Assembly: GCA_963711035.1 (NCBI GenBank)
Contig: CAVQCN010000001.1
Coordinates: 1,025,942 to 1,089,941, forward strand
Origin: an uncultured Chloroflexia bacterium
Lineage (GTDB): Bacteria > Chloroflexota > Dehalococcoidia > DSTF01 > WHTK01
DNA: 64,000 nucleotides
Direction: 5' to 3'
Position 1 is the first letter of the stretch, and each line of letters opens with the position of its first letter. This document shows, piece after piece, positions 6,741 to 30,947 of this stretch. A program made the position numbers and the translations under genes. Below the pieces are notes generated by a model. That model searched no databases. It saw nothing but the letters and a program-made list of their open reading frames with translations, and was not told the origin of the DNA.

Positions 6741-7591
6741 TTCAATCCGGCGAGGTGACGTGGCCCTTGAGCCCGCCGTCGCCCGTGTTCGGGCGGCTGG
6801 ATCGTGCCGGATGAGGGCGTGGCGATTGGTGGTGGCGCTGATGTCGGCGTCGCTTCGGGCGCCGGCGTGGCCGTTTCGACAGCCTCGGGCGCCGGCGTCG
6901 GAGGTTCGGGCGCTGAGCGCGCGGCGCTGATCGCCTGCAGCAGTCCGTTCAGGGGCACGCTGCCGGTGATCGACCAGATCTCGCCGTACGGCGACGAACC
7001 GGCCGGGATTACCAGCTGCGCTTCGGCGCCGGGCAGGTAGGCGTCCAGCAACGGCTTGCTGATCGCCAGCCAGGGTCCGTCTGGCAGCAGTTCGACGGTC
7101 TCGTTATCGACGATGTGGTAGACGAGGCCGGCCCAGCCGAACTCGTCGCCGGTATCGCTGAACAGGACCAGGTAGCGTTCTCCCACCTGGTAGTGGTTGG
7201 CGGCCAGAGGGCAGGAGCTTATCGTGCCGTGGGCTTCGCTCTCGCGCAGGCGCTGCTCGAGGAGTTGGCGCTGGTAGGCGTCGACCTCGATTTGAGCCGG
7301 CGCGGTGCCGGCGCGTACGAGCACGACGCTCAGCGTTGCGCCGACACCGGTCAGGTCGAAGCCCTCGTACGGATTGATGCCGTTCGGCGGCGTGGCGTCG
7401 ATGGGCGGCTGGCTGTTCTCCGGCCCGCCGACCGCCGTCGCCTCGACGATTGCGATCAGTCCGCGCTGCGGGCGGCTTCGTCGATGGTCGCCGGGCCGGG
7501 GCCGGTACAGGCGAGGGCCGGCGGCGCCGGCGTGTTGACCCTCATCAGGGCAAGCATGGCGAGCAGGAAGGCCACGAAGACCACCAAAAGG
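6741..7591 (-). pseudogene. Secreted Pro/Thr-rich surface protein, interrupted by two 1-nt indels; C-terminus carries PPNTGDGGLK but no TM/basic tail
   Basis: Signal peptide MMKRLLVVFVAFLLAMLALMRVNTPAPPALA|C from ATG 7589-7591 stops after 48 codons. A frame change at a CCC/GGG run near 7470 continues into track ORF 6632..7324. A further shift at a GGG run near 6792 gives ...SSGTIQPPNTGDGGLKGHVTSPD* ending at TGA 6741-6743. Confidence 0.5.
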
Positions 7592-8242: not shown

Positions 8243-8374
8243 AGTGAACCTCCTGGAGTCGTGGTCCCGGGCCGCGAGTCCGCCTCGGCGGAAGAGGCCG
8301 CCACGCGGCCCGGTCGCGCGACAGTGTACGAGAGCCAGCCGGGAATTACCCTGCCCGATCAGATGTTCGGGCGA

Positions 8375-8413
8375 ACCTCACCCCCTACCCCCTCTCCGAT
8401 TTCGGAGAGGGGG
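8375..8413. repeat. Left terminal inverted repeat with 11-12-bp G/C hairpin (8388-8413)
   Basis: ccccctctccg / cggagaggggg perfect stem with ATTT loop, preceded by acctcaccccc. Confidence 0.7.
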
Positions 8414-8423
8414 TTAGCCGTAG

Positions 8424-8795
8424 TCAATTGGACGCTGCCTGGATTACGTTCAGCACGGTTGGTAATGAGGTCATGACTTCGTCATTCTTGAAGCGCAGGA
8501 CGTTGAGTCCGATGTTCTCCAGGTAGGCTTGTCGATTGGAGTCATCCTCAATGCTCGTTTCGTGGATTGGCCCGTCCACTTCAACGACGAGCTTTGCTGC
8601 GTGGCAGTAGAAGTCGACGATGAACGGCCCGATAGCGTGTTGGCGCCTGAAGCGCAGGCCGTTCAGCTTGCCGCCGCGCAATTCCTGCCAGAGCATCTGC
8701 TCTGCAGACGTCGGTTCGCGCCGATGTTGTCGTGCTAACGGCTTCAGCTGCTCCCAGATCTGGGGTGGAGTTTGCCACACACGTTCTTCGTCCAT
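8424..8795 (-). CDS. DUF559 (Vsr-like endonuclease fold) domain protein
   Basis: Internal ATG 8793-8795 of track ORF 8424..9014 gives MDEERVWQTPPQIWEQLKPLARQHRREPTSAEQMLWQELRGGKLNGLRFRRQHAIGPFIVDFYCHAAKLVVEVDGPIHE...GLNVLRFKNDEV. The upstream part of the track ORF is Arg/Ser junk. Confidence 0.8.
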   Translation of the reverse strand: MDEERVWQTPPQIWEQLKPLARQHRREPTSAEQMLWQELRGGKLNGLRFRRQHAIGPFIVDFYCHAAKLVVEVDGPIHETSIEDDSNRQAYLENIGLNVLRFKNDEVMTSLPTVLNVIQAASN

Positions 8796-20390: not shown

Positions 20391-20591
20391 CTGCGAGCTT
20401 TCAGCGGCGAGATAGTTCGTCGTCATTGCGAGGAGCGCCAGCGACGTGGCAATCTCGGTCGGTCGGGCCGTCCTCGGACGTGGCCGTGTCAGGATTGCAG
20501 CGTCTCTACCGTGATGGAAGCAGCCCCCGCAGCCCCAGATTGCCGCGCCTTGCTGCCGCAATGGCTTGCAATGACAACGCGGAGCCGACGG

Positions 20592-22001
20592 TCAGGGAGA
20601 CTGCGTCGGGGACGCGAAGGCGGCGTCGACGCGCGCGTCCGAGCCGAGGATGACGACGATGTCGGCGTTCGAGGTGCGCAGAGAGGCGTCGGCGGCGGTG
20701 GCCTTGCGGATGCTGGACGAAGGGACGCTGAGCCAGCCGGCCAGGCGCTGCGCCGTGTACGTTTTCCCGGTGAAGTCGATGATCTGGGTGGTCGCGCTCG
20801 TCGTGGCGGCGTTGTTCACGGCGATGAGCGAGGACTGCGGTATGCCGAGGCTGGTGAAGTAGTCGATAGCCTGGGTGGCGGCGCCGTCGACGCCGGTGGC
20901 GTTCTGCACCTCGACGGTGGCGTTTTCGGTGTTCAGCTTGTTGTCGGCCAGGAAGGCGTCAACGATCTGCTTGACGCCCTCCTCCGAGGGCAGCAGGACC
21001 TCTGCACCCGTGGACGGAATCGTATACGGCGTCGTCGCAGGGGCGAGCGACATGAGTGTGATCTGATCCTGGTGGATCTGCGTTGCCAGCCGGGCGAAGC
21101 CGGGGATCTGCTGATCGTTGATGTCAGTCGTAATCGTGTCCTTGTAGCGCTTCCAGAGGCTGACCATGTTGTCGACGCTGCTGAGCAGGTTCAGGCTCGT
21201 TGCCTTGTCCATGACGGCGAAGATGACGAGTTGCTGGCGCAGGATGCGGTCGAGGTCGCTGGAGTTGAAGCGCGTGCGGGAGAAGCAGAGCGCGTCGCTG
21301 GCATCCATGTGGTGCATGCCGGCGTCGAAGATGCAGGGGTAGTAGTCGCCAAGCAGCTCCGTTTCCGAGTAGTACGGGTCGTCCACGGCGAGGCTCGGGG
21401 GCACATCAACGTCGATGCCGCCCAGGCTGTCGATGATCTTCTTGAAGCCCTGGAAATCGATCAAGACGTAGTAGTCGATCTTGATGCCCAGCAGGTTCTC
21501 GACCGTCGTCTCCACGGTCCTGATACCACCGCCGGGGTAGTGACCGTTTTCGCCGTAGATGTAGGCGGTGTTGACTCGGTCCTGGAAGGTGCCGTTCGGC
21601 GACGGGATGTTGACCCAGAGGTCGCGCGGGATCGCCAGGCCTCGCGCGGTCTTCGTGCCGGGATCGATGCTCAGGACGAACATGGTGTCGGTGCGGGAGG
21701 GCGCGTTGCCTTCGTAGGGGCGGCGGTCCAGGCCCATGACAAGGATGTTGATGCGTCCGCCGCTACCTATGTTGCTCGTGTTGCCTTTGTCGATGCCCGG
21801 CACGTTGCCGAGGATGCCGCCTATCTGGATCTCGTTGCCCGGGAAGAAGATCTGGTCGATCTGCGTGGCGACGACCAGCGCGGTGTAAAAGGCGCCAACG
21901 GCGAGCACGAGGATGCCGGCAATGAAGAGTATCCGATTGCGTGCTTTGGGCCGGGAACGTCTGCGGGGAGGTGGCGCGTCATTGCGCGAGCGACGGGACA
22001 T
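20592..22001 (-). CDS. LCP-family (LytR-CpsA-Psr) cell-envelope polymer transferase
   Basis: 469 aa; N-terminal basic tail + TM (RILFIAGILVLAVGAFYTALVV); LCP core TDTMFVLSIDPGTKTARGLAIPRDLWVNIP. Confidence 0.85.
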   Translation of the reverse strand: MSRRSRNDAPPPRRRSRPKARNRILFIAGILVLAVGAFYTALVVATQIDQIFFPGNEIQIGGILGNVPGIDKGNTSNIGSGGRINILVMGLDRRPYEGNAPSRTDTMFVLSIDPGTKTARGLAIPRDLWVNIPSPNGTFQDRVNTAYIYGENGHYPGGGIRTVETTVENLLGIKIDYYVLIDFQGFKKIIDSLGGIDVDVPPSLAVDDPYYSETELLGDYYPCIFDAGMHHMDASDALCFSRTRFNSSDLDRILRQQLVIFAVMDKATSLNLLSSVDNMVSLWKRYKDTITTDINDQQIPGFARLATQIHQDQITLMSLAPATTPYTIPSTGAEVLLPSEEGVKQIVDAFLADNKLNTENATVEVQNATGVDGAATQAIDYFTSLGIPQSSLIAVNNAATTSATTQIIDFTGKTYTAQRLAGWLSVPSSSIRKATAADASLRTSNADIVVILGSDARVDAAFASPTQSP

Positions 22002-22136
22002 CGCTATTGAACGTATCGTGCGGAGAAATCGGCGTCAAGTTGTTCACATGTCAGGCAACGCGGCTCGCCCTTGCCGGTTGACAGCCCGATCGGCTGGCGC
22101 CTACCATCGGCGCGTCCTGACATAAGGAGAGATGGC

Positions 22137-22901
22137 ATGAACTACGAGCGGCTGCAGCTGCGCCGCGACGGTTCCGTAGCGCGTATCGTCTTGGCGCGTC
22201 CCGCCGAGGCGAACCGCGTCGATCTGCGGCTGCTGCGCGAGCTCACCGGCGCGGCGGAGCAGTTGTCCGATGCAACCGACGTGCGTGTCGTCGTCGTCGA
22301 AGCGGAGGGCAACGACTTCTGCGCCGGCTGGGCGCCGGACGCTCGCGAGGCGCTGCTGGGATCAGGCCTGGACGCTGTCGATCCGTTCGGGCCCATCGCC
22401 GGCTTGCCGGTGCCGGTCGTGGCGGCGCTGCACGGTGAGGTGAGCAGCGCCGGCCTCGAGCTGGCGCTGTGCTGCGACGTCCGCATCGCCGCGGAGGACG
22501 CACGTTTCTCGATGCCTGAGGTATCGGAGGGCATTCTGCCGCTGGCGGGCGGCAGCCAGCGGCTGCCGCGCATCGTCGGACGGGCGCAGGCGCTCTCGAT
22601 GCTGCTGCTGAGCGAGCCGGTCGATGCGCCGGCGGCGTACGCCTGCGGTCTCGTCAGCCGAGTGGTCGCGAAGCAGGATCTGGAGGCCGAGGTGACGGCG
22701 CTGGCCGGTACGATCAACTCGCGTGGTCCTTTGGGCGTGCGCTACGCCAAGGAAGCCGCGTCGCGCGGTGTTGAGATGTCACTCGAGCAAGGGCTGCGCT
22801 TCGAGACCGATCTCTCGATCATTCTGCAGACCACGCGCGACCGTGCGGAAGGGCTGAAGGCGTTCTTCGAGAAGCGGCCGCCGCAGTTCGAGGGCCGCTA
22901 A
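22137..22901 (+). CDS. Enoyl-CoA hydratase/isomerase (crotonase) family protein
   Basis: ATG 22137 with AAGGAGAG 7 nt upstream; MNYERLQLRRDGSVARIVLARP...FCAGWA...VAALHGEVSSAGLELALCCDVRIAAEDARF. Confidence 0.85.
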   Translation: MNYERLQLRRDGSVARIVLARPAEANRVDLRLLRELTGAAEQLSDATDVRVVVVEAEGNDFCAGWAPDAREALLGSGLDAVDPFGPIAGLPVPVVAALHGEVSSAGLELALCCDVRIAAEDARFSMPEVSEGILPLAGGSQRLPRIVGRAQALSMLLLSEPVDAPAAYACGLVSRVVAKQDLEAEVTALAGTINSRGPLGVRYAKEAASRGVEMSLEQGLRFETDLSIILQTTRDRAEGLKAFFEKRPPQFEGR

Positions 22902-22995
22902 AGGTTTGCATTCCGCGCACGAGGTTCGCGAGAGGCGCTTCTTTGAAGGCGCGCAGACGGTATGATTACGTTCACACTTCTTAGAGGGGGAGCCC

Positions 22996-23259
22996 ATGCA
23001 GATCATTCTCGAATCTGACGAAGCCTGGTCGATCATGAGCCTCGTCGTCGCGCAGGTGCTCGATCAGGTCGATCTGTCGGAGGAAGGCCAGACCGTCGTC
23101 CGTCGCTGGCGCAGCGATCATAACGATGGCACCACCGAGATGTCCGAGCTCACGGTCTCGATGAACGAAGCCCTGGGTACGGTTCTGGACGAGAAGACGA
23201 CCCGCCTGGTGCGGCGCAAGGGCTGGTACGTTTCCACGGGCGGGGAGCGCCAGGCATGA
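22996..23259 (+). CDS. Small acidic hypothetical protein (87 aa), paralog A
   Basis: MQIILESDEAWSIMSLVVAQVLDQVDLSEEGQTVVRRWRSDH...; clear paralog of the next ORF; ATGA overlap. Confidence 0.5.
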   Translation: MQIILESDEAWSIMSLVVAQVLDQVDLSEEGQTVVRRWRSDHNDGTTEMSELTVSMNEALGTVLDEKTTRLVRRKGWYVSTGGERQA

Positions 23260-23495
23260 AAGTCGAATTTGAAACCGAAGAAGCCTGGGACCTGATGTCT
23301 CACGTCATCGGTCGCATGCTCGAAGAGTGCGAGCTGTCTGATTCCGACCGCGCTCGCATCCGGCGCTGGAAGAGCGACGAGATGCGCGTCACCAGCCAGG
23401 AGATGAAGGTCCTGGGCGAGAAGATCAACACCGATCTGGAGCAGACTTTCGCCCGCAAGAGCCGCAGCCAGATCCGCAAACCCGACTGGCGCTGA
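23256..23495 (+). CDS. Small acidic hypothetical protein (79 aa), paralog B
   Basis: MKVEFETEEAWDLMSHVIGRMLEECELSDSDRARIRRWKSDE...; shares EEAW..MS.V....L.....S......RRW.SD with paralog A. Confidence 0.5.
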   Translation: MKVEFETEEAWDLMSHVIGRMLEECELSDSDRARIRRWKSDEMRVTSQEMKVLGEKINTDLEQTFARKSRSQIRKPDWR

Positions 23496-23592
23496 GCCAG
23501 TGCATGGCGCGCAAACCGCGCGGAGTGTCTCCGCAATGCGGATCGTGAGAGAAGCCGTCCAGCGGTGGGTGCTCGTGTAGTGGGGAGTTGTT

Positions 23593-24318
23593 TTGGCTGA
23601 GGAGAGCCTGCTCCTGGAACAGCAGGGTGGTATCGCCTGGCTGACTCTGAACCGGCCCCAGGTGCACAACGCCATCAACCTGGAGCTGCGCGACGCGCTG
23701 TGGGCAGCGCTCGACGCCGTCAGCCTCGATCCAGATGTGGGCGTGCTCGTCTTTCGCGGCGCCGGTGAGCGGGCGTTCTCGGCCGGCGCAGACCTCGCCG
23801 ACTTCGGTACGGCGTCGTCGTTCACGGAGGCGCGTCGAGGCCGCCGCGAGCGTGACCTCTGGGGGCGCCTCGCCTTCTTCGAGAAACCCATGATCGCGGC
23901 GGTGCAGGGCTTCGCGCTCGGCGCCGGCTGCGAGCTCAGCCTGTACTGCGACCTGCGTATCGCCGCCCCGGAGGCGCGCTTCGGTCTGCCGGAGGTGTCG
24001 CTAGGGTATCTGCCGACGGCGGGTGGCAGCCAGACGCTACCACGCATCGCGGGACTGGGACGTGCCCTGCACATGATCTGCAGCGGCGTGGCTGTCCCGG
24101 CGCAGCAAGCGCTGGAGTACGGCATCATCCACGAAGTCGTGCCTCGCGACCAGCTTTACGCGCGGGCGGAGGCGCTGGCGCAGCGCTTGCTGGCGCAACC
24201 GGCAGAGGTGCTGAAAGCGACCAAGGCGGCCGTGCTGCAGGGCCTGGACATGAGCCTGGAGACCGGCCTGCGCTTCGAGGCGGCGCAGCGTTCCTCTCCG
24301 TCACACCTTCCCCGTTAA
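23593..24318 (+). CDS. Enoyl-CoA hydratase/isomerase family protein (second paralog; TTG start)
   Basis: 241 aa ...GIAWLTLNRPQVHNAINLEL...FSAGADL...MIAAVQGFALGAGCELSLYCDLRIAAPEARFGLPE. Confidence 0.85.
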   Translation: MAEESLLLEQQGGIAWLTLNRPQVHNAINLELRDALWAALDAVSLDPDVGVLVFRGAGERAFSAGADLADFGTASSFTEARRGRRERDLWGRLAFFEKPMIAAVQGFALGAGCELSLYCDLRIAAPEARFGLPEVSLGYLPTAGGSQTLPRIAGLGRALHMICSGVAVPAQQALEYGIIHEVVPRDQLYARAEALAQRLLAQPAEVLKATKAAVLQGLDMSLETGLRFEAAQRSSPSHLPR

Positions 24319-24365
24319 GTCGGCGTCGTTTTATCCTAGGCGTCACAAGCAGCGAGAGGGCGCTG

Positions 24366-25934
24366 ATGAATCCAGCCGAGTTTCTCACCATTAGCAGTGC
24401 GGTCCTGCCCGACCGTGAAGCGCTCGTCTCCGGCGACGGCAGCAAGCGCATCACGTACGCAGAGATGGCCTCCCGTGTGACGCGGCTGGCCAACGCCCTC
24501 GTCGGAATGGGCGTGGAGCAGGGCACCCGCGTGGCGCTGATGTCGACGAACTCCCCCGAGTGCGTCGAGGTCTATTACGCGACGGCCAAGCTGGGCGGCT
24601 GCTTCGTGCCGATCAACTACCGCGCCAAGCGCGAAGAGCTCTCGTACATGCTCAACGCGTCGGGCGCCACCGTCTTGTTCATCGAGAGCCGTTACCTGGA
24701 GCTGCTCGCGTCCGTGCGCGCCGAGCTCGAGACTTTGCGCGAGGTCGTCGTACTCGACCGCGAGGTCGAAGCTATGCCGACCTACGATGCGCTGCTGGCC
24801 GGCGCCGGGGAAGACGAGCTCTTCATAGACGTCGACCTGAGCCAGCCGACGGCGCTGATCTTCACTTCGGGTACGACGGCACTGCCCAAGGGCGTCGAGC
24901 TCACGTTCATGAATCTGGCGCTGTACGTGCTGAACACGATGAGCCCGGCCGACCCGACTACGCCGCCCGAGAAGACGCTCGTCTCGGTGACCGTGGCGCA
25001 CGTGGCCGGTCTCACTGCGATCCTGTCCTCGATCTGGGGCGGTCGCACGCTCGTGACGCTGTCGCAGTTCGACCCGGAAGGCTGGCTGCTCGCCGTGCAG
25101 CGCGAGGGCGTGACCCACAGCTTCGTGGTTCCGACGATGCTGAAGCGCATTATGGACAGCCCGGTCTTCGACCGCCATGACCTCAGCTCCCTGCAGCTCA
25201 TCACCTACGGCGCCGCGCCGATGCCGTTCGACGTCGTCTGTCGCGCCATTGAGGTATTCAGCTGCGGCCTGATGAATGCTTACGGCCAGACCGAAAGCAC
25301 GTCGTCTCTTACCTACCTGGGGCCGGAAGACCATCGTATGGACGGCTCTGAGGAGGAGAACGCGCTCAAGTTCCACCGCCTGCGCTCCGTCGGCCGGCCC
25401 ATGGACGACGTCGAGATCGCAATCATGGACCCGAAGGGCCGGCCGCTGTCCCGGGGCGAAGAGGGCGAGATCTGCGTCAAGAGCGCGCGGGTCATGAAGG
25501 AGTATCTCAACCAGGTCGAGGCCACGTCTGAAGCCGTGCAGGACGGCTGGCTGCACACCGGCGACCAGGGTTACCTTGACGAAGAGAACTATTTGTTCAT
25601 TACGGGCCGCGTGAAGGACCTGATCATCCGCGGCGGCGAGAACATTTCCCCCGGCGAAATCGAGTCCATTCTCGAGGGCCATCCCGAGATCGACGAGGCA
25701 GCCGTCATCGGCGTGCCGGATTCAGAGTGGGGCGAGGCGGTGAAGGCAATCGTGGTGCCGGTGCCGGGCGCTGAGGCCACGGTGGACGACATCCGCAGCT
25801 ACTGCCGCGAGCACCTCTCCAGCTACAAGACGCCGGCTTACGTCGCCTTCCTGGATGAGCTGCCGCGCAACCCGATGGGCAAGGTGCTCAAAACGGATCT
25901 GCGCCGCGAGCACGGCGGCGCCGACAACAACTGA
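24366..25934 (+). CDS. AMP-dependent acyl-CoA synthetase (fatty-acid--CoA ligase)
   Basis: 522 aa; AMP-binding motifs LIFTSGTTALPKGV, YGQTE, GWLHTGD, ...PRNPMGKVLK. Confidence 0.9.
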   Translation: MNPAEFLTISSAVLPDREALVSGDGSKRITYAEMASRVTRLANALVGMGVEQGTRVALMSTNSPECVEVYYATAKLGGCFVPINYRAKREELSYMLNASGATVLFIESRYLELLASVRAELETLREVVVLDREVEAMPTYDALLAGAGEDELFIDVDLSQPTALIFTSGTTALPKGVELTFMNLALYVLNTMSPADPTTPPEKTLVSVTVAHVAGLTAILSSIWGGRTLVTLSQFDPEGWLLAVQREGVTHSFVVPTMLKRIMDSPVFDRHDLSSLQLITYGAAPMPFDVVCRAIEVFSCGLMNAYGQTESTSSLTYLGPEDHRMDGSEEENALKFHRLRSVGRPMDDVEIAIMDPKGRPLSRGEEGEICVKSARVMKEYLNQVEATSEAVQDGWLHTGDQGYLDEENYLFITGRVKDLIIRGGENISPGEIESILEGHPEIDEAAVIGVPDSEWGEAVKAIVVPVPGAEATVDDIRSYCREHLSSYKTPAYVAFLDELPRNPMGKVLKTDLRREHGGADNN

Positions 25935-25974
25935 CGCCGGGCAACTCGACTGGCTGCTGCATAACCCACGTGTG

Positions 25975-26445
25975 TGGCCGACTTCGCTGAGGGCCAGACC
26001 CTTCGCTCCGCTCAGAGTGACAACGCAGCAGGTGTGTCATGCTGAGCGCCCGCGAAGCATCTCCCGGTGCCCCACGCCTCGACGTTCCGTGCATCCGCAC
26101 GGCCAGGACCACGTGTCGTCTTACGGATGGCGCAGCGTCCTGACGCTGGCCCGGGAGGCCTGCCCGCGCCTGGCGGTATCGGGGTTCGCCCCGACCGCAG
26201 CCGGGAGACCCTTCGCTCCACTCAGGGTGACAACGCAGCAGGCGTCATGCTGAGCGCCCGCGAAGCATCTCCCGGTAACCCAGCGCGGCGTCGTTTCAAA
26301 GCATACGCACGGCCAAGACCACGCGCCGCAATACAGCTGCCCCTGCGTCCTTACGGTGGCCCGCCGACCTGCCCGCCGGTTTCGGGGTTCGTACCGCCCG
26401 CGACGGGGAGACCCTTCGCTCCGCTCAGGGTGACAGCATTGCCGT
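25975..26445. repeat. Tandem array (about 2.3 copies of a ~210-bp unit), each unit containing a REP-like hairpin motif
   Basis: agacccttcgctcc(g/a)ctcag(a/g)gtgacaacgcagcagg...gtcatgctgagcgcccgcgaagcatctcccggt at 25996-26068 and 26206-26276, partial third copy at 26409-26440; flanking acgcacggccaagaccacg...cgtccttacgg...ctgcccgc...tcggggttcg also repeated. Confidence 0.6.
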
Positions 26446-26457
26446 AACGTACGAGAG

Positions 26458-27186
26458 CTATGTTTCGTCCTCTGTGTAGGGCGGTAGAGGCTCCAGCGGC
26501 GCCGCACCGTGGGTGGAGAAGCGGGCCCAGAGAGCCGCGGCGAGGGCATCGCTGGCCCTGCGATAGCCGGGGCAGTCGAAACGCAGGCGCGAGTCGTCGA
26601 AATCGACGTCGAAGTAGCTGCACTGGTGCGGATCTGCAGACTGTTCGTTCAGAAAGGGCCGGAAATGGCGGCAGCTGACGCACATGGCCGTCTCTGAGAC
26701 CTGATGGCCCATCTCAAGGCCCCGCACGAGCTTCATCAGGGCCCTCAGCAGCACTGTCTGCTCCGTCTCTGAGAGCGCTTCGGCGGCGCCGGTCAGGGCG
26801 CTGGATCCTTGAGATAGCCCTTCGGCGCGTTTTTCGCCCTCGCTCGTCAGGCGTATGGCCACGGCGCGGCCGTCGTCAGGCGCTGCCGTGCGCCTCAGAA
26901 GCCGTTTTTCGACCAGAGAAGAGACGGAATCGCTGGCTGAGGCGGGTGTGACGCCCAGACGCGCGGCTACCGCCGCCAACCGCATGCCTTCAGGCACACC
27001 GCGCAGGGTCGAGAGGATGGCCGCCTGCGTCGGTGTGAGGCGCTGATCGGCGCTGAGATGGCGAATTCCGCTGCGAAGCGCTCGTGAGATTGCTTCCTCT
27101 GCGATGCTCAGATGGCGACCAAAGTGAATTCGCCTGTCGTTTTCATCATACATAGCTAGGAATCCTAACGAGTTCTCAGCATACAA
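26458..27186 (-). CDS. MarR-family transcriptional regulator with Cys-rich C-terminal extension
   Basis: wHTH core ...LTPTQAAILSTLRGVPEGMRLAAVAARLGVTPASASDSVSSLVEKRLLRR...; C-terminal ~70 aa carry CVSCRHF...C...C. Confidence 0.8.
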   Translation of the reverse strand: MYAENSLGFLAMYDENDRRIHFGRHLSIAEEAISRALRSGIRHLSADQRLTPTQAAILSTLRGVPEGMRLAAVAARLGVTPASASDSVSSLVEKRLLRRTAAPDDGRAVAIRLTSEGEKRAEGLSQGSSALTGAAEALSETEQTVLLRALMKLVRGLEMGHQVSETAMCVSCRHFRPFLNEQSADPHQCSYFDVDFDDSRLRFDCPGYRRASDALAAALWARFSTHGAAPLEPLPPYTEDET

Positions 27187-27224
27187 CCGAAATCTCGTGA
27201 GGTCGAGCGGAGGATGAGGTGTTG

Positions 27225-30200
27225 TTACGCGACGCCTGCTGCGGCCGAGGTCAGGTCGCGCAGCTGATTGCGCAGGCCGCCGTCCAGCGCGGCACTGGGC
27301 AACTGCAGCTCGAAGTTCTCGCCACCGCGCGTACGGATGGTAAGGAAGATGGCGTCCGCGCCGGGGTGCGACTGCAGGAGTCGGAAGAGCTCGGCCAGGC
27401 GTGCCTGGTCGGCGGCTTCGTCCGGCGTCTCGTCGAGGGTGAGCCGCAGCGGAGCCGGCGTGGCGGTCTCCTGCGGCAGGTCGGCGGAGTAGACGCCACG
27501 TTCCTCGGCCACGGCGAGCGTGGTTGTGGGCGGCGGAGCGGGTTCGGCCGCGCCCGGGCGTTCCTCCAGGACGGAGGCAGGCTCAGGGCTGGCTTGCGGC
27601 TCGTCTTCGGTGGGTTCGAGCGCGGCTGGCGGCGGCGCTGGGGCGGTCTTGTGACCGTTACCATTGCCGTTGGCGTATGGGCGAGGCGGCACGTCGAGCG
27701 AGACGTTCGCCAGCCAGGACGGCGGCGTGAAGTCGGGCGTGAAGAGCTCGACTTCCTGCACGCCGGCGGAGAGACGCTCGCCGCGCTCTCGCACGCGCAC
27801 CTGCATCAAGACGATGCTGCCGGTGTTCCATATCTCCATCGTGCGCTCGTAGATGTCGGGCCAGACCGTGACCTCCAGCGTGCCGGAAAGGTCCGTGACC
27901 TCGGCGGCAATGAAGCTGCGTCCGTCGCGCGTCGCCAGGCGTCGCGAAGAGCCAACGAGCCCGGCGATGATGAAGTCGCGGCCCTGCGCCGGCAGGTCGG
28001 CGAGCAGCTCGGGCGTCATCTCGTTGCACAGGGCCGTCGTGTATGGCGCGAGCTGCGAGGCGGCGTGTGTGAACGGGTGCTCCGACAGCCAAATGCCCAG
28101 CAGCTCTTTTTCCCATGCAAGCAGCTCGCTCTTGGGCAGGGGTGTCGATTCGAGGTCGATGCCGGAAAGCGGCGTCGCGACTTCGTCGCCGAAGAGGTCG
28201 AACATCGTCGTTTGGCCGGTCTCTTTGAGCTTCTGAGCGCCCTGCGAAATGCTGAGGATGCGGTCCAGGTTGGCGAGCATGGAGCCTCGCGCGTCGGAGC
28301 CGCCGACGACGGAGTCAAAGGCGCCGGCCTTGATCAGGCTTTCGAGAGCGCGCTTATTGACGTTGCGCGGGTTGATGGTGCGACAGAAGTCGTCGAGCGT
28401 CGCGAAGCCCGTCTCGCCGCGCGACTCGATCAGCGACTCGGCAGCGCCGGAGCCGACGTTCTTGATCATGGCCAGGCCGAAGCGAATGCCGGTTCGGCCG
28501 TCCTCCGTCGCCTCGAGCGAGAAGTTCGGCTGGCTGCGGTTGACGTCGGGTGGCAGCACGGGCACGCCGAGACGGACGCATTCGTTGTAAGCCTGTGCGA
28601 TGCGGTCCAGGGTGCCAGCCGGGTGGCTGTCGGCGCCCATGAGGACGGCGCAGAGGTACTCCTCGGCGTAGTTCGCTTTGAGGTAGGCCGTCTGGTAGGC
28701 GATGGTCCCGTAGGAGTAGGAGTGCGCCTTGTTGAACGCGTAGCCGGCGAAGGGCTCAATCAGGTCGAAGACCTTGCGCGCGTCCTCCTCCGAGTAGCCC
28801 TTCGCGATGGCGCCGTTCATGAAGCGATCGCGCTCGGCCTGCATCATGGCGGCGATCTTCTTGCCCATCGCCTTGCGCATGATGTCGGCCTGGCCCAGCG
28901 TGTAGCCGCCGAACTTCTGCGCGATCTTCAGCACCTGGTCCTGGAAGACGATGACGCCGTAGGTCTCGTCCAGGATGTCGGCCAGGTCGGGGTGCGGGTT
29001 GCTCACCTGCTCCAGGCCATGCTTGGCGCGGCAGAAGGTGCCGATGTGCTGCATCGGGCCCGGGCGGTACAGCGCGACGAGCGCGGCGAGGTCACCTATC
29101 GAAGTGGGCTTCAGCTCCTGCACGGCGCGGCGCATGCCCGCCGATTCGAGCTGGAAGACGCCGAACGTTTCGCCCTGGCCCAGCATTTCGAAGCTCTTGG
29201 TGTCGCCGTCCGGCAGGTGGGCTAAGTCGATGTTGACGCCGTGACGCTGGTTGATGAGCTCGACGGCGCGTTCAAGGATGGTCAGGTTCGAGAGGCCCAG
29301 GAAGTCCATCTTCACCAGGCCTATGGCCGCTACCTGCTCCATGGCGTACTGCGTCGTCGGCATCGCCTGGGCGTCGCCGCGCGCCGGGCGGGCCAGCGGC
29401 AGGTGCTCGACCAGCGGGTCGGTGCTGATCACGACGCCTGCCGCGTGGGTGCCGGCGTTGCGGGCCACGCCCTCCAGCTTGCGCGCCGAGTCGACCAGGT
29501 TGCGGATCTGCGTATCCGTCTCGTAGGCGGTGCGCAGCTCGGCCGATTCGTTGAGGGCCCGCTCGAGGGTCATGTGCAGCGCGTTGGGGATGAGGCGCGC
29601 GACGCGGTCGACGTCGGCGTAGCTCATGGCCAACGCGCGGCCGACGTCGCGTACTGCGGCCTTGGCGCCAAGCGTGCCGAAAGTGATGATCTGCGCCACG
29701 CGGTCGCTACCGTAGCGGTTTGCGGCGAAGCGCAGTACTTCCTCGCGCCGCTCGTCGGAGAAGTCGAAGTCGACGTCGGGCGCTTCGGGGCGTTCCAGGT
29801 TGAGGAAGCGCTCGAAGACCAGGTTCGCGGCCAGCGGATCGATGTCGGTGACGCCGAGGCAGTAGAGCACGAGGCTGGCGGCGGCGCTGCCGCGCACGCC
29901 CATGCGGATGCCCTGCGAGCGCGCGAAGGTCGCGATCTCGCGCACGATATGGATGTAGTTGGTGAAGCCGGTCTGCTGCACGACGTCGAGCTCGTAGCGC
30001 AGGCGGTCCTCGGCGTCCGGACCGGAGTTGGGCAGCAGGCGGTGCAGACCCTCCCAGCAGAGGCGTGTCAGATACTCGTGAGACGACTCGCCCGGCGGCA
30101 GCTCCGGCTCCGGCAGGTGCAGGCGGCCGAACTCGAGCGTGAGGTCGCACTGCTCGGCGATCTTCCAGGTGTTGTCGATCGCCTCCGGGAAGTCGCGGAA

Positions 30201-30947
30201 GCCATCGCGCATCTCGGCTTCGGAGCGGACGTAGTAGGACGGGTCGGAGAGGCGCATGCGCTTCTCTTCCTGCACCGTCGCATTCGTGCCGATGCAGAGC
30301 AGCACGTCGTGGATGTCGTGGTCGTCTTTGTTGAGGTAGTGCGAGTCGTTGGTCGCGACGAGGGGGATGCCCATCTCGCGCGACATGTCGATGATGACCT
30401 TCTTGGCCTGGTCGAACTCGGGCAGGTCATGGTCCTGGATCTCGAGATAGTAGCCGTCGAACACGTCGCGGTACCAGCTGGCCGTGGCCTTCGCCTCGTC
30501 GATGCGGCCGTCGAGGATGAGGCGGTGCAGCTCGCCCGACGGGCAGCCCGAGAGGGCGATGATGCCTTCGCTGTGCTGCGCCATGAGCTCGCGGTCGATG
30601 CGGGGGCGGTAGTAGTAGCCCTCGAGGTGGGAGCTGGTCACCAGTTTGAGCAGGTTGCGGTAGCCGGTGTTGTTCTTTGCCAGCAGGGTCAGGTGAAAGG
30701 GCTGCTTGTCACCGGTGTCGCGGGTCAGCCGCGACCCGGGCGCCACGTAGGCCTCGACGCCGATGATGGGTTTGATGTCCTGGGCGCGGGCGGCGCGATA
30801 GAAGTCGATGGCGCCGTAGAGGGCGCCGTGATCGGTCATGGCGACGGCTTCCTGGCCCAGCTCCTTGACGCGCTCCATGAGCGGGTGAATGCGGGTCAGG
30901 CCGTCGAGCAGCGAGTACTCAGTGTGAAGGTGTAGGTGCGTAAACAT
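27225..30947 (-). CDS. dnaE: DNA polymerase III subunit alpha
   Basis: 1240 aa MFTHLHLHTEYSLLDGLTRIHPLMERVKELGQEAVAMTDHGALYGAIDFY... PHP + polymerase core + OB domain; low-complexity Pro/Ala/Glu tail. Confidence 0.97.
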   Translation of the reverse strand: MFTHLHLHTEYSLLDGLTRIHPLMERVKELGQEAVAMTDHGALYGAIDFYRAARAQDIKPIIGVEAYVAPGSRLTRDTGDKQPFHLTLLAKNNTGYRNLLKLVTSSHLEGYYYRPRIDRELMAQHSEGIIALSGCPSGELHRLILDGRIDEAKATASWYRDVFDGYYLEIQDHDLPEFDQAKKVIIDMSREMGIPLVATNDSHYLNKDDHDIHDVLLCIGTNATVQEEKRMRLSDPSYYVRSEAEMRDGFRDFPEAIDNTWKIAEQCDLTLEFGRLHLPEPELPPGESSHEYLTRLCWEGLHRLLPNSGPDAEDRLRYELDVVQQTGFTNYIHIVREIATFARSQGIRMGVRGSAAASLVLYCLGVTDIDPLAANLVFERFLNLERPEAPDVDFDFSDERREEVLRFAANRYGSDRVAQIITFGTLGAKAAVRDVGRALAMSYADVDRVARLIPNALHMTLERALNESAELRTAYETDTQIRNLVDSARKLEGVARNAGTHAAGVVISTDPLVEHLPLARPARGDAQAMPTTQYAMEQVAAIGLVKMDFLGLSNLTILERAVELINQRHGVNIDLAHLPDGDTKSFEMLGQGETFGVFQLESAGMRRAVQELKPTSIGDLAALVALYRPGPMQHIGTFCRAKHGLEQVSNPHPDLADILDETYGVIVFQDQVLKIAQKFGGYTLGQADIMRKAMGKKIAAMMQAERDRFMNGAIAKGYSEEDARKVFDLIEPFAGYAFNKAHSYSYGTIAYQTAYLKANYAEEYLCAVLMGADSHPAGTLDRIAQAYNECVRLGVPVLPPDVNRSQPNFSLEATEDGRTGIRFGLAMIKNVGSGAAESLIESRGETGFATLDDFCRTINPRNVNKRALESLIKAGAFDSVVGGSDARGSMLANLDRILSISQGAQKLKETGQTTMFDLFGDEVATPLSGIDLESTPLPKSELLAWEKELLGIWLSEHPFTHAASQLAPYTTALCNEMTPELLADLPAQGRDFIIAGLVGSSRRLATRDGRSFIAAEVTDLSGTLEVTVWPDIYERTMEIWNTGSIVLMQVRVRERGERLSAGVQEVELFTPDFTPPSWLANVSLDVPPRPYANGNGNGHKTAPAPPPAALEPTEDEPQASPEPASVLEERPGAAEPAPPPTTTLAVAEERGVYSADLPQETATPAPLRLTLDETPDEAADQARLAELFRLLQSHPGADAIFLTIRTRGGENFELQLPSAALDGGLRNQLRDLTSAAAGVA

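Follow-up and report, generated by a model that had tools for sequence, protein, structure and literature searches.

Two short open reading frames (ORFs), called A and B below, lie between two genes of the crotonase superfamily, ECH1 and ECH2, in a 64,000-nucleotide stretch of contig CAVQCN010000001.1 from an uncultured Chloroflexia bacterium (assembly GCA_963711035.1, positions 1,025,942 to 1,089,941; this whole stretch is referred to as the window). Are these ORFs real genes, and what do two such small proteins do in the middle of a block of acyl-CoA enzymes? The initial annotation, made from the sequence alone, suggested a regulatory or chaperone-like factor. A and B are genuine genes, paralogous and conserved. 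As for their role, the observations speak for something more specific than a generic regulator or chaperone, with A and B as likely physical partners of the flanking crotonases.

Two small paralogous genes

The ORFs stand where the initial annotation placed them, on the plus strand, and the TGA stop codon of A and the ATG start codon of B share an ATGA overlap. End-to-end comparison of the two proteins by BLASTP gives 25/78 identical residues (32%, E 3e-14), and the profiles of the A and B families match each other in hhalign with 99.1% probability (E 1e-18), so that the proposed full-length paralogy is borne out. The shared motif M-x-V/I...EEAW..M...RRW(K/R)SD is real. Both proteins had been described as acidic. 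This is clearly so for A (net charge -6, pI 4.6), whereas B is near neutral (net charge -1, pI 5.9); the gradient from a Glu-rich N-terminus to a basic C-terminus is present but mild. The window contains no further copies of A or B.

Several observations identify A and B as real genes. Homologues are numerous and nearly constant in length: clustering at 90% identity in a collection of 5.8 billion proteins yields 321 clusters homologous to A and 274 homologous to B, with most A matches having 85-87 amino acids (aa) and every listed B match having 79 aa. The ratio dN/dS is low, 0.116 for A and 0.114 for B, in orthologue pairs limited to 80-99% nucleotide identity (the all-pairs value is uninformative, as synonymous sites are saturated and biased by the GC content of third codon positions, GC3). 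Differences per codon position are about 0.07/0.04/0.24, that is, the third position dominates. GC3 itself is 0.80-0.81 in A and B, the same as in the neighbouring genes. Both ORFs are preceded by GGGGAG-type Shine-Dalgarno boxes (GGGGGAG before A), and both were independently called as genes in other assemblies. Thus neither absence of homologues nor poor codon adaptation, which the initial annotation had named as signs of spurious ORFs, is seen here.

The opposite strand of A, B and ECH2 carries an ORF of 336 aa (23118-24128, minus strand). It has no Pfam match and an atypical GC content of second codon positions (0.64), and is probably spurious.

A lineage-restricted family

The initial annotation recognised no family for A and B, and the profile libraries agree: there is nothing above threshold in Pfam, NCBIfam, PHROGs and PADLOC. 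A lenient Pfam scan (E up to 10) of 67 members produced scattered sub-threshold matches only. The best hit of the family profile in a sequence search of PDB has E 0.29, and no solved structure was found in that search. When 1.84 billion cluster representatives were searched exhaustively with HMMER (cut-off E 1e-3), just 94 proteins were returned, all of them A-like or B-like and about 78-90 aa long; the longer relatives inspected among these look chimeric or frameshifted.

Members of the family turned up in 103 stretches of species-representative genomes, of which 80 loci were kept for the analysis of gene order. The loci were scanned with an alignment of B only, the combined alignment of A and B being too divergent. 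All 80 loci come from genomes labelled as Chloroflexota-type or as unclassified 'bacterium', with Dehalococcoidia forming the majority. The carriers include Tepidiformaceae, Tepidiforma flava YIM 72310, which is a cultured isolate, and 'Ca. Amarobacillus'. Judged by these searches, A and B represent an undescribed, lineage-restricted protein family.

Several known families of small proteins were considered as possible relatives. The central motif R-R-W-(K/R)-S lacks the Gly at +2 of the WXG100 (EsxA-EsxB) proteins, there is no WXG100 match in Pfam, and the Foldseek comparison with EsxA gives E 9.5 and probability 0.03. One member matches EspC weakly (E 0.05) in the lenient Pfam scan. Assignment to ribbon-helix-helix proteins or antitoxins is not supported either: there is no ribbon-helix-helix match in Pfam, and the N-terminal segment M-K-V-E-F-E-T-E-E is acidic and is predicted as coil in the AlphaFold2 (AF2) monomers. 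A and B are not detached C-terminal domains of a crotonase, as hhalign comparison with the ECH1 and ECH2 profiles yields probabilities of at most 0.3%.

Sub-threshold matches to the N-terminus of RdfA (PF21811), the rod-determining factor A of haloarchaea, occur in 21/67 members (residues about 18-65 of A-type proteins), the best with E 5e-4. For protein A of the window the score is 13.5 bits (E 0.063), where the Pfam gathering threshold is 27 bits, and the match covers profile positions 3-50 of 195. The gene of RdfA is expected beside that of the SMC-like partner Sph3 (PMC10869688), whereas the neighbours of A and B are crotonases in all loci. The matches are partial and sub-threshold, and the size and the context differ; despite their recurrence they were thus judged to be spurious.

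The names given by JGI to five homologues (P0036, P0058, P0133, P0134, P0152) are inconsistent and include roadblock/LC7, methyl-accepting chemotaxis protein and Spy/CpxP chaperone. None of these labels has Pfam support, and they look like annotation noise. In particular, no LTXXQ, CpxP or Spy family is among the matches of the 67 members at E up to 10, and A and B have no hydrophobic leader, the proteins beginning directly at the conserved M-K-V-E-F.

Reciprocal degeneration of the flanking crotonases

The initial annotation listed both flanking genes simply as crotonases. ECH1 and ECH2 are 39% identical. The closest solved structures of both are EchA8, 3-hydroxypropionyl-CoA dehydratase, PaaF and ECHS1-type hydratases; PaaG is also matched. 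For a comparison of the two families, 77 orthologues of ECH1 and 62 of ECH2 were aligned with rat ECHS1, whose catalytic glutamates are E144 and E164. The rat sequence served for motif location only.

The oxyanion motif (A/S)GAD is present in all 62 ECH2 proteins and in none of the 77 ECH1 proteins; ECH1 of the window has FCAGW in place of F-x-AGAD. Both catalytic glutamates are retained in 62/62 ECH2 and in 20/77 ECH1, and both are lost in 29/77 ECH1 and in no ECH2 (0/62). Deletions of at least 6 residues in the loop 165-176 were observed in 27/77 ECH1 and in 0/62 ECH2. At the C-terminus the situation is reversed. The helix DRAEGVRAFLEKRxPxF is present in 77/77 ECH1 proteins and in merely 4/62 ECH2 proteins, being absent from the remaining 58/62. 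ECH2 of the window, which lacks the canonical helix DRxEGxxAFxEKRxPxF, covers positions 1-224 of the 251 positions of the ECH_1 profile and can be aligned to the crotonases of PDB up to about residue 228 of 257. The mean pairwise identities follow the same pattern, 41% in the core and 64% at the C-terminus of ECH1 versus 63% and 36% in ECH2.

By its motifs, ECH2 is a catalytically competent enoyl-CoA hydratase and the ECH1 family is not; the alignment thus shows that the two paralogs have degenerated reciprocally. In crotonases the C-terminal helical domain is responsible for trimer formation and forms the cover of an active site. Reciprocal losses would therefore be expected if a homomer had been duplicated and had turned into an obligate heteromer, and the pattern suggests such a heteromer, one subunit of which would be a pseudo-enzyme.

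Conservation of the gene cluster

The order ECH1-A-B, with all three genes on the same strand, is retained in essentially all 80 species-level loci, down to about 42% identity. ECH2 follows B in most of them, and the acyl-CoA synthetase gene (ACS, the ligase of the window) then follows in a large share. Close relatives are syntenic throughout (S20, ADH, LytR, ECH1, A, B, ECH2, ACS, DnaE), and the synteny of LytR, DnaE and ADH is gone in distant loci. In Tepidiforma the neighbourhood beyond the core is unrelated; in this very GC-rich locus Pfam was run on ORFs chosen by hand. No copy of A or B away from crotonases was found. The embedding of the pair in a co-directional, beta-oxidation-like block, proposed initially, is confirmed by the Pfam assignments of the flanking genes, and its conservation beside crotonase and acyl-CoA ligase genes was upheld in other genomes.

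In four loci, L035 and three loci of the divergent A-like branch, ECH1-A-B-ECH2 is followed by ACS, a membrane Fe-S/CCG oxidoreductase and the beta and alpha subunits of electron transfer flavoprotein (ETF). By gene content, this extended block is an acyl-CoA oxidation operon. The distance between A and B is from -4 to +9 nucleotides in 57/82 loci, and the distance from the stop codon of ECH1 to the start codon of A is 1-6 nucleotides in about half of the loci. This spacing is compatible with translational coupling.

It could be argued that A and B have no functional relation to the crotonases and are mere passengers, such as a structural or stress pair peculiar to the lineage, which was trapped between the two genes early in the clade and has stayed in place through operon inertia. 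As the family occurs in a single bacterial class, shared ancestry could explain a part of the synteny, and the function of A and B cannot be read from sequence or fold. On the other hand, all the surroundings of the core have been rearranged, with loss of the LytR, DnaE and ADH synteny and with insertions of toxin-antitoxin, integrase and CBASS genes, whereas ECH1-A-B-ECH2 is kept with tight junctions to about 42% identity, and A and B do not occur elsewhere in our data. Because of this reshuffling we consider the passenger explanation quite unlikely.

Predicted structure and conserved residues

AF2 models of the monomers, built with alignments of 150 sequences, are all-helical. The model of A (pLDDT 79.7) has helices at residues 7-24, 29-41 and 47-75, and that of B (pLDDT 84.5) at 7-24 and 29-70; the pTM values are modest, 0.57-0.60. 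Fold searches produced weak, generic matches with no convincing solved fold, and none of them indicates a DNA-binding regulator.

Conservation was assessed by comparing species, with 81 sequences for A and 82 for B. Three residues, Glu9, Trp38 and Asn57/58, never vary in either paralog. Other positions are specific: D31, R32, A33, K56 and D60 are invariant or nearly so in B, and S12, L16, D23, R39 and D65 are conserved likewise in A. In addition, B ends with a nearly invariant S-Q-I/L-R-K-P-D-W tail, whose RKPDW part looks like a docking peptide.

The size of about 80-87 aa, the all-helical prediction and the acidity recall the acyl carrier protein (ACP) and the acyl-CoA-binding protein (ACBP), and there is an L-S-(D/E) motif at the start of helix 2. 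Moreover, an AMP-binding ligase together with two crotonases is reminiscent of beta-branching cassettes. One could thus imagine A and B as acyl or acyl-CoA carriers passing substrates from the ligase to the hydratases. However, the serine of the motif, Ser28, is Ser in 75/81 A and merely in 37/82 B, the others having Asp, Pro or Gly; as it is not conserved, it cannot be an obligatory prosthetic-group site. Neither a PP-binding/ACP profile match (Pfam, E up to 10) nor the four-helix ACP fold was found. ACBP (PF00887) has no Pfam match at the same threshold and is not among the fold matches, and in hhalign the alignment of A-type proteins matches bovine ACBP with a probability of 0.13%. The covalent-carrier version is largely refuted, and a carrier of any kind seems very improbable.

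A candidate accessory subunit of a heteromeric hydratase

Our tentative explanation, to which we give preference without regarding it as established, is that A and B form a heterodimer serving as an accessory or adaptor subunit of a heteromeric ECH1/ECH2 hydratase. A and B would be produced in a fixed proportion with ECH1 and ECH2, and would pair as a helical-bundle heterodimer. This heterodimer would bind the ECH1/ECH2 assembly as a small non-catalytic adaptor, clamp, gate or regulator. ECH2 would supply the active site of the heteromer, and ECH1, as a largely non-catalytic paralog, would provide the conserved C-terminal helical domain now missing from ECH2. The substrate of the complex would be acyl-CoA delivered by the downstream ligase, within an ETF-linked acyl-CoA oxidation operon. 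We infer the binding of A to B, the contact of A/B with ECH1 and/or ECH2, the ECH1-ECH2 heteromer, the substrate and the direction of regulation from the genes.

A stricter form can be considered as well, in which ECH1, A, B and ECH2 constitute a hitherto undescribed four-component hydratase holoenzyme whose functions were split after the crotonase duplication, the helical pair, itself duplicated and known from this Dehalococcoidia lineage only, clamping or gating a mixed ring. This is possible but doubtful. The same doubt applies to the division of labour that it implies, with ECH2 as the catalytic core and ECH1 as the C-terminal lid and trimerisation domain.

In favour of the accessory-subunit explanation stand the conserved gene order with its tight junctions, the reciprocal degeneration of the crotonases, the residues invariant in both A and B, and the tail of B. 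Evolutionary distances also covary when the divergence of ACS is controlled for: the partial r is 0.68 between A and B, 0.53-0.57 between A/B and the core of ECH1, and 0.45-0.52 between A/B and the C-terminus of ECH2. This lends weak support to a partnership of A/B with the crotonases.

Several points weigh against the accessory-subunit explanation. The covariation may reflect nothing more than the fast evolution common to A and B, to the core of ECH1 and to the C-terminus of ECH2, and conserved gene order indicates functional linkage rather than binding. ECH1 of the window keeps both catalytic glutamates and could still be active. Many ordinary crotonases have about 240 residues, so that the missing helix of ECH2 need not be complemented. 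Finally, A and B show no sequence or profile similarity to crotonase segments or to small partners of the AccE or FI type discussed below, and their fold matches are weak and generic.

One alternative retains the link to the enzymes and makes A/B a regulator, responsive to a small molecule or binding a protein, which gates the hydratase or the ligase, for example as an inhibitor or anti-activator, or acts as a transcription-linked factor, and is not a stable subunit. A small conserved pair, co-transcribed with enzymes and having the invariant polar residues E9, W38 and N57, would fit such a role, and the conserved basic residues R36, R39 and R73/74 could touch the phosphates of CoA or nucleic acid. 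There is also a precedent in RpfR-FI/RpfF, where a domain of about 95 residues obstructs the substrate tunnel of a crotonase and thereby inhibits the enzyme (PMC6361424). However, the Pfam and NCBIfam searches gave no match to DNA-binding families, whether helix-turn-helix, ribbon-helix-helix or other, and the strong acidity of A together with the near neutrality of B is unfavourable for DNA binding. The fixed place between the crotonases and the gaps of 1-6 nucleotides suggest stoichiometric co-production over a trans-acting role. A regulator of this kind seems unlikely, although it deserves to be kept in mind.

Another possibility, close to what the initial annotation proposed, is that A and B are transient chaperone-like assembly factors for mixed ECH1/ECH2 trimers or hexamers and are absent from the final enzyme. 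The same linkage evidence applies here as for the accessory subunit, and the degenerate core of ECH1 with its large deletions may need stabilising. The data do not distinguish transient from stable binding. On the other hand, no similarity of A and B to any known chaperone family was found, the 'Spy/CpxP' labels having no support in Pfam, and we consider assembly factors quite improbable.

Comparison with known systems

The working analogy that we propose for the accessory subunit is AccE5, one of the epsilon subunits (AccE/PccE) of actinobacterial acyl-CoA carboxylases. In AccE5 the helix-turn-helix at the C-terminus inserts into the lumen of the crotonase-fold heterohexamer AccD4/AccD5 (bioRxiv 10.64898/2026.02.06.704326). 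In both cases small helical, presumably non-catalytic proteins are encoded together with paralogous crotonase-fold subunits. However, A and B have no detectable sequence similarity to AccE5 and form a duplicated pair. The partners differ too: those of AccE5 are carboxyltransferases, whereas ECH1 and ECH2, the putative partners of A and B, are of the enoyl-CoA hydratase type, and there are no genes of biotin carboxylase or biotin carboxyl carrier protein.

The rpf clusters, which encode the crotonase RpfF, also hold a fatty acyl-CoA ligase. The FI domain of RpfR, of about 95 residues, regulates RpfF, the DSF synthase, to which it binds in a 3:3 complex close to the substrate tunnel (PMC6361424). 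Unlike this domain, which is PAS-like alpha/beta and is fused to a signalling protein, A and B are free-standing and all-helical; the gene arrangement is different, and there is no homology.

The hydratase-isomerase PaaF-PaaG (PDB 4FZW) is a stable complex of two crotonase paralogs encoded by one operon (PMC4498308). ECH1 and ECH2 are likewise crotonase paralogs of one operon, and both match the structures of PaaF and PaaG. However, both subunits of PaaFG are active and form stacked homotrimers with no small accessory proteins, whereas of the two crotonases considered here one is degenerate, and a pair of small genes is inserted between them. For the A/B pair itself, obligate heterodimerising helical modules, such as the kinetochore Mis12/MIND subunits and L27 domains, may be mentioned as a further comparison.

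Other features of the loci

The features of the window are listed in Table 1. The mechanical ORF of ECH1 begins at TTG 22071, and the likely start is ATG 22137, preceded by the Shine-Dalgarno box AAGGAG. With this start, the promoter-like site would sit upstream of the operon. No terminator-like sites were found in the region 20400-27300, and the spacers flanking A and B have no Rfam match at E up to 1. The ligase scores 475.5 bits with the NCBIfam model PRK06187 (long-chain-fatty-acid--CoA ligase), just below the cutoff of 476 bits.

Table 1. Positions of the genes of the ECH1-A-B-ECH2-ligase block and of the candidate promoter in the window
Feature	Position	Strand	Description
Promoter-like site	22078-22107	+	TTGACA-18-TACCAT, 10/12 consensus matches, pattern match only; just upstream of the probable ECH1 start
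ECH1	22137-22901	+	upstream crotonase-fold protein, 254 aa; Pfam ECH_1, E 3e-49, 167.9 bits (cutoff 27)
ORF A	22996-23259	+	acidic helical protein, 87 aa, pI 4.6; undescribed family
ORF B	23256-23495	+	paralog of A, 79 aa, pI 5.9; start overlaps the stop of A as ATGA
ECH2	23593-24318	+	downstream crotonase, 241 aa; Pfam ECH_1, E 3e-56, 190.8 bits (cutoff 27)
Acyl-CoA ligase (AMP-binding)	24366-25934	+	Pfam AMP-binding, E 7e-82; last co-directional gene of the block

Three long plus-strand ORFs of the window, 20511-22010, 27219-29225 and 29241-30935, have no Pfam match and are antisense shadows of the minus-strand genes LytR_cpsA_psr (20592-22001) and dnaE (27225-30947).

In loci L001 and L004, the spacer between B and ECH2 is longer, about 355 nucleotides, and contains a gene call of 83 aa (8289-8540) that has no match to the A/B profiles and may be spurious. 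Divergent lineages have one or two extra unannotated ORFs (147-187 aa, no Pfam match) between ECH2 and the ligase, at 8353-8796 in L088, 8274-9311 in L090 and 8230-9358 in L092; the window lacks them. In L035 a gene of F420H2-dependent quinone reductase (7051-7536) occupies this place.

Some loci have mobile or defence-related neighbours. In two divergent genomes (L090 and L091, 5347-5987) a pair of an RHH_1 antitoxin and a PIN toxin is directly upstream of ECH1. In one assembly the block ECH1-A-B-ECH2-ACS-ETF occurs on two contigs (L093, 1-6040, and L092). The upstream flank on the 51-kb contig of this assembly consists of an rve integrase and a CBASS-type set of genes (SMODS, bacHORMA_1, AAA, SAVED). 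The duplicate block might reflect variation between strains, a mobile insertion or an assembly haplotype.

Implications

The stakes are moderate, as the family is lineage-restricted and the chemistry is probably ordinary acyl-CoA hydration or isomerisation, with no link to any long-standing open question. Small accessory subunits are in themselves known among crotonase-fold enzymes; the combination with a pseudo-crotonase, a truncated crotonase and a duplicated pair would be new.

Chloroflexota of this kind occur widely in soils and sediments, habitats in which acyl-CoA metabolism is regarded as central. If the proposed partnership is true, a function would be assigned to a family annotated as 'hypothetical' in the Chloroflexota genomes and metagenomes examined. 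The locus also illustrates cleanly how duplicates can degenerate reciprocally, in the enzymes as well as in the small proteins. Finally, the crotonase superfamily would gain a new architecture, composed of a pseudo-enzyme, a truncated catalytic subunit and two small helical subunits.

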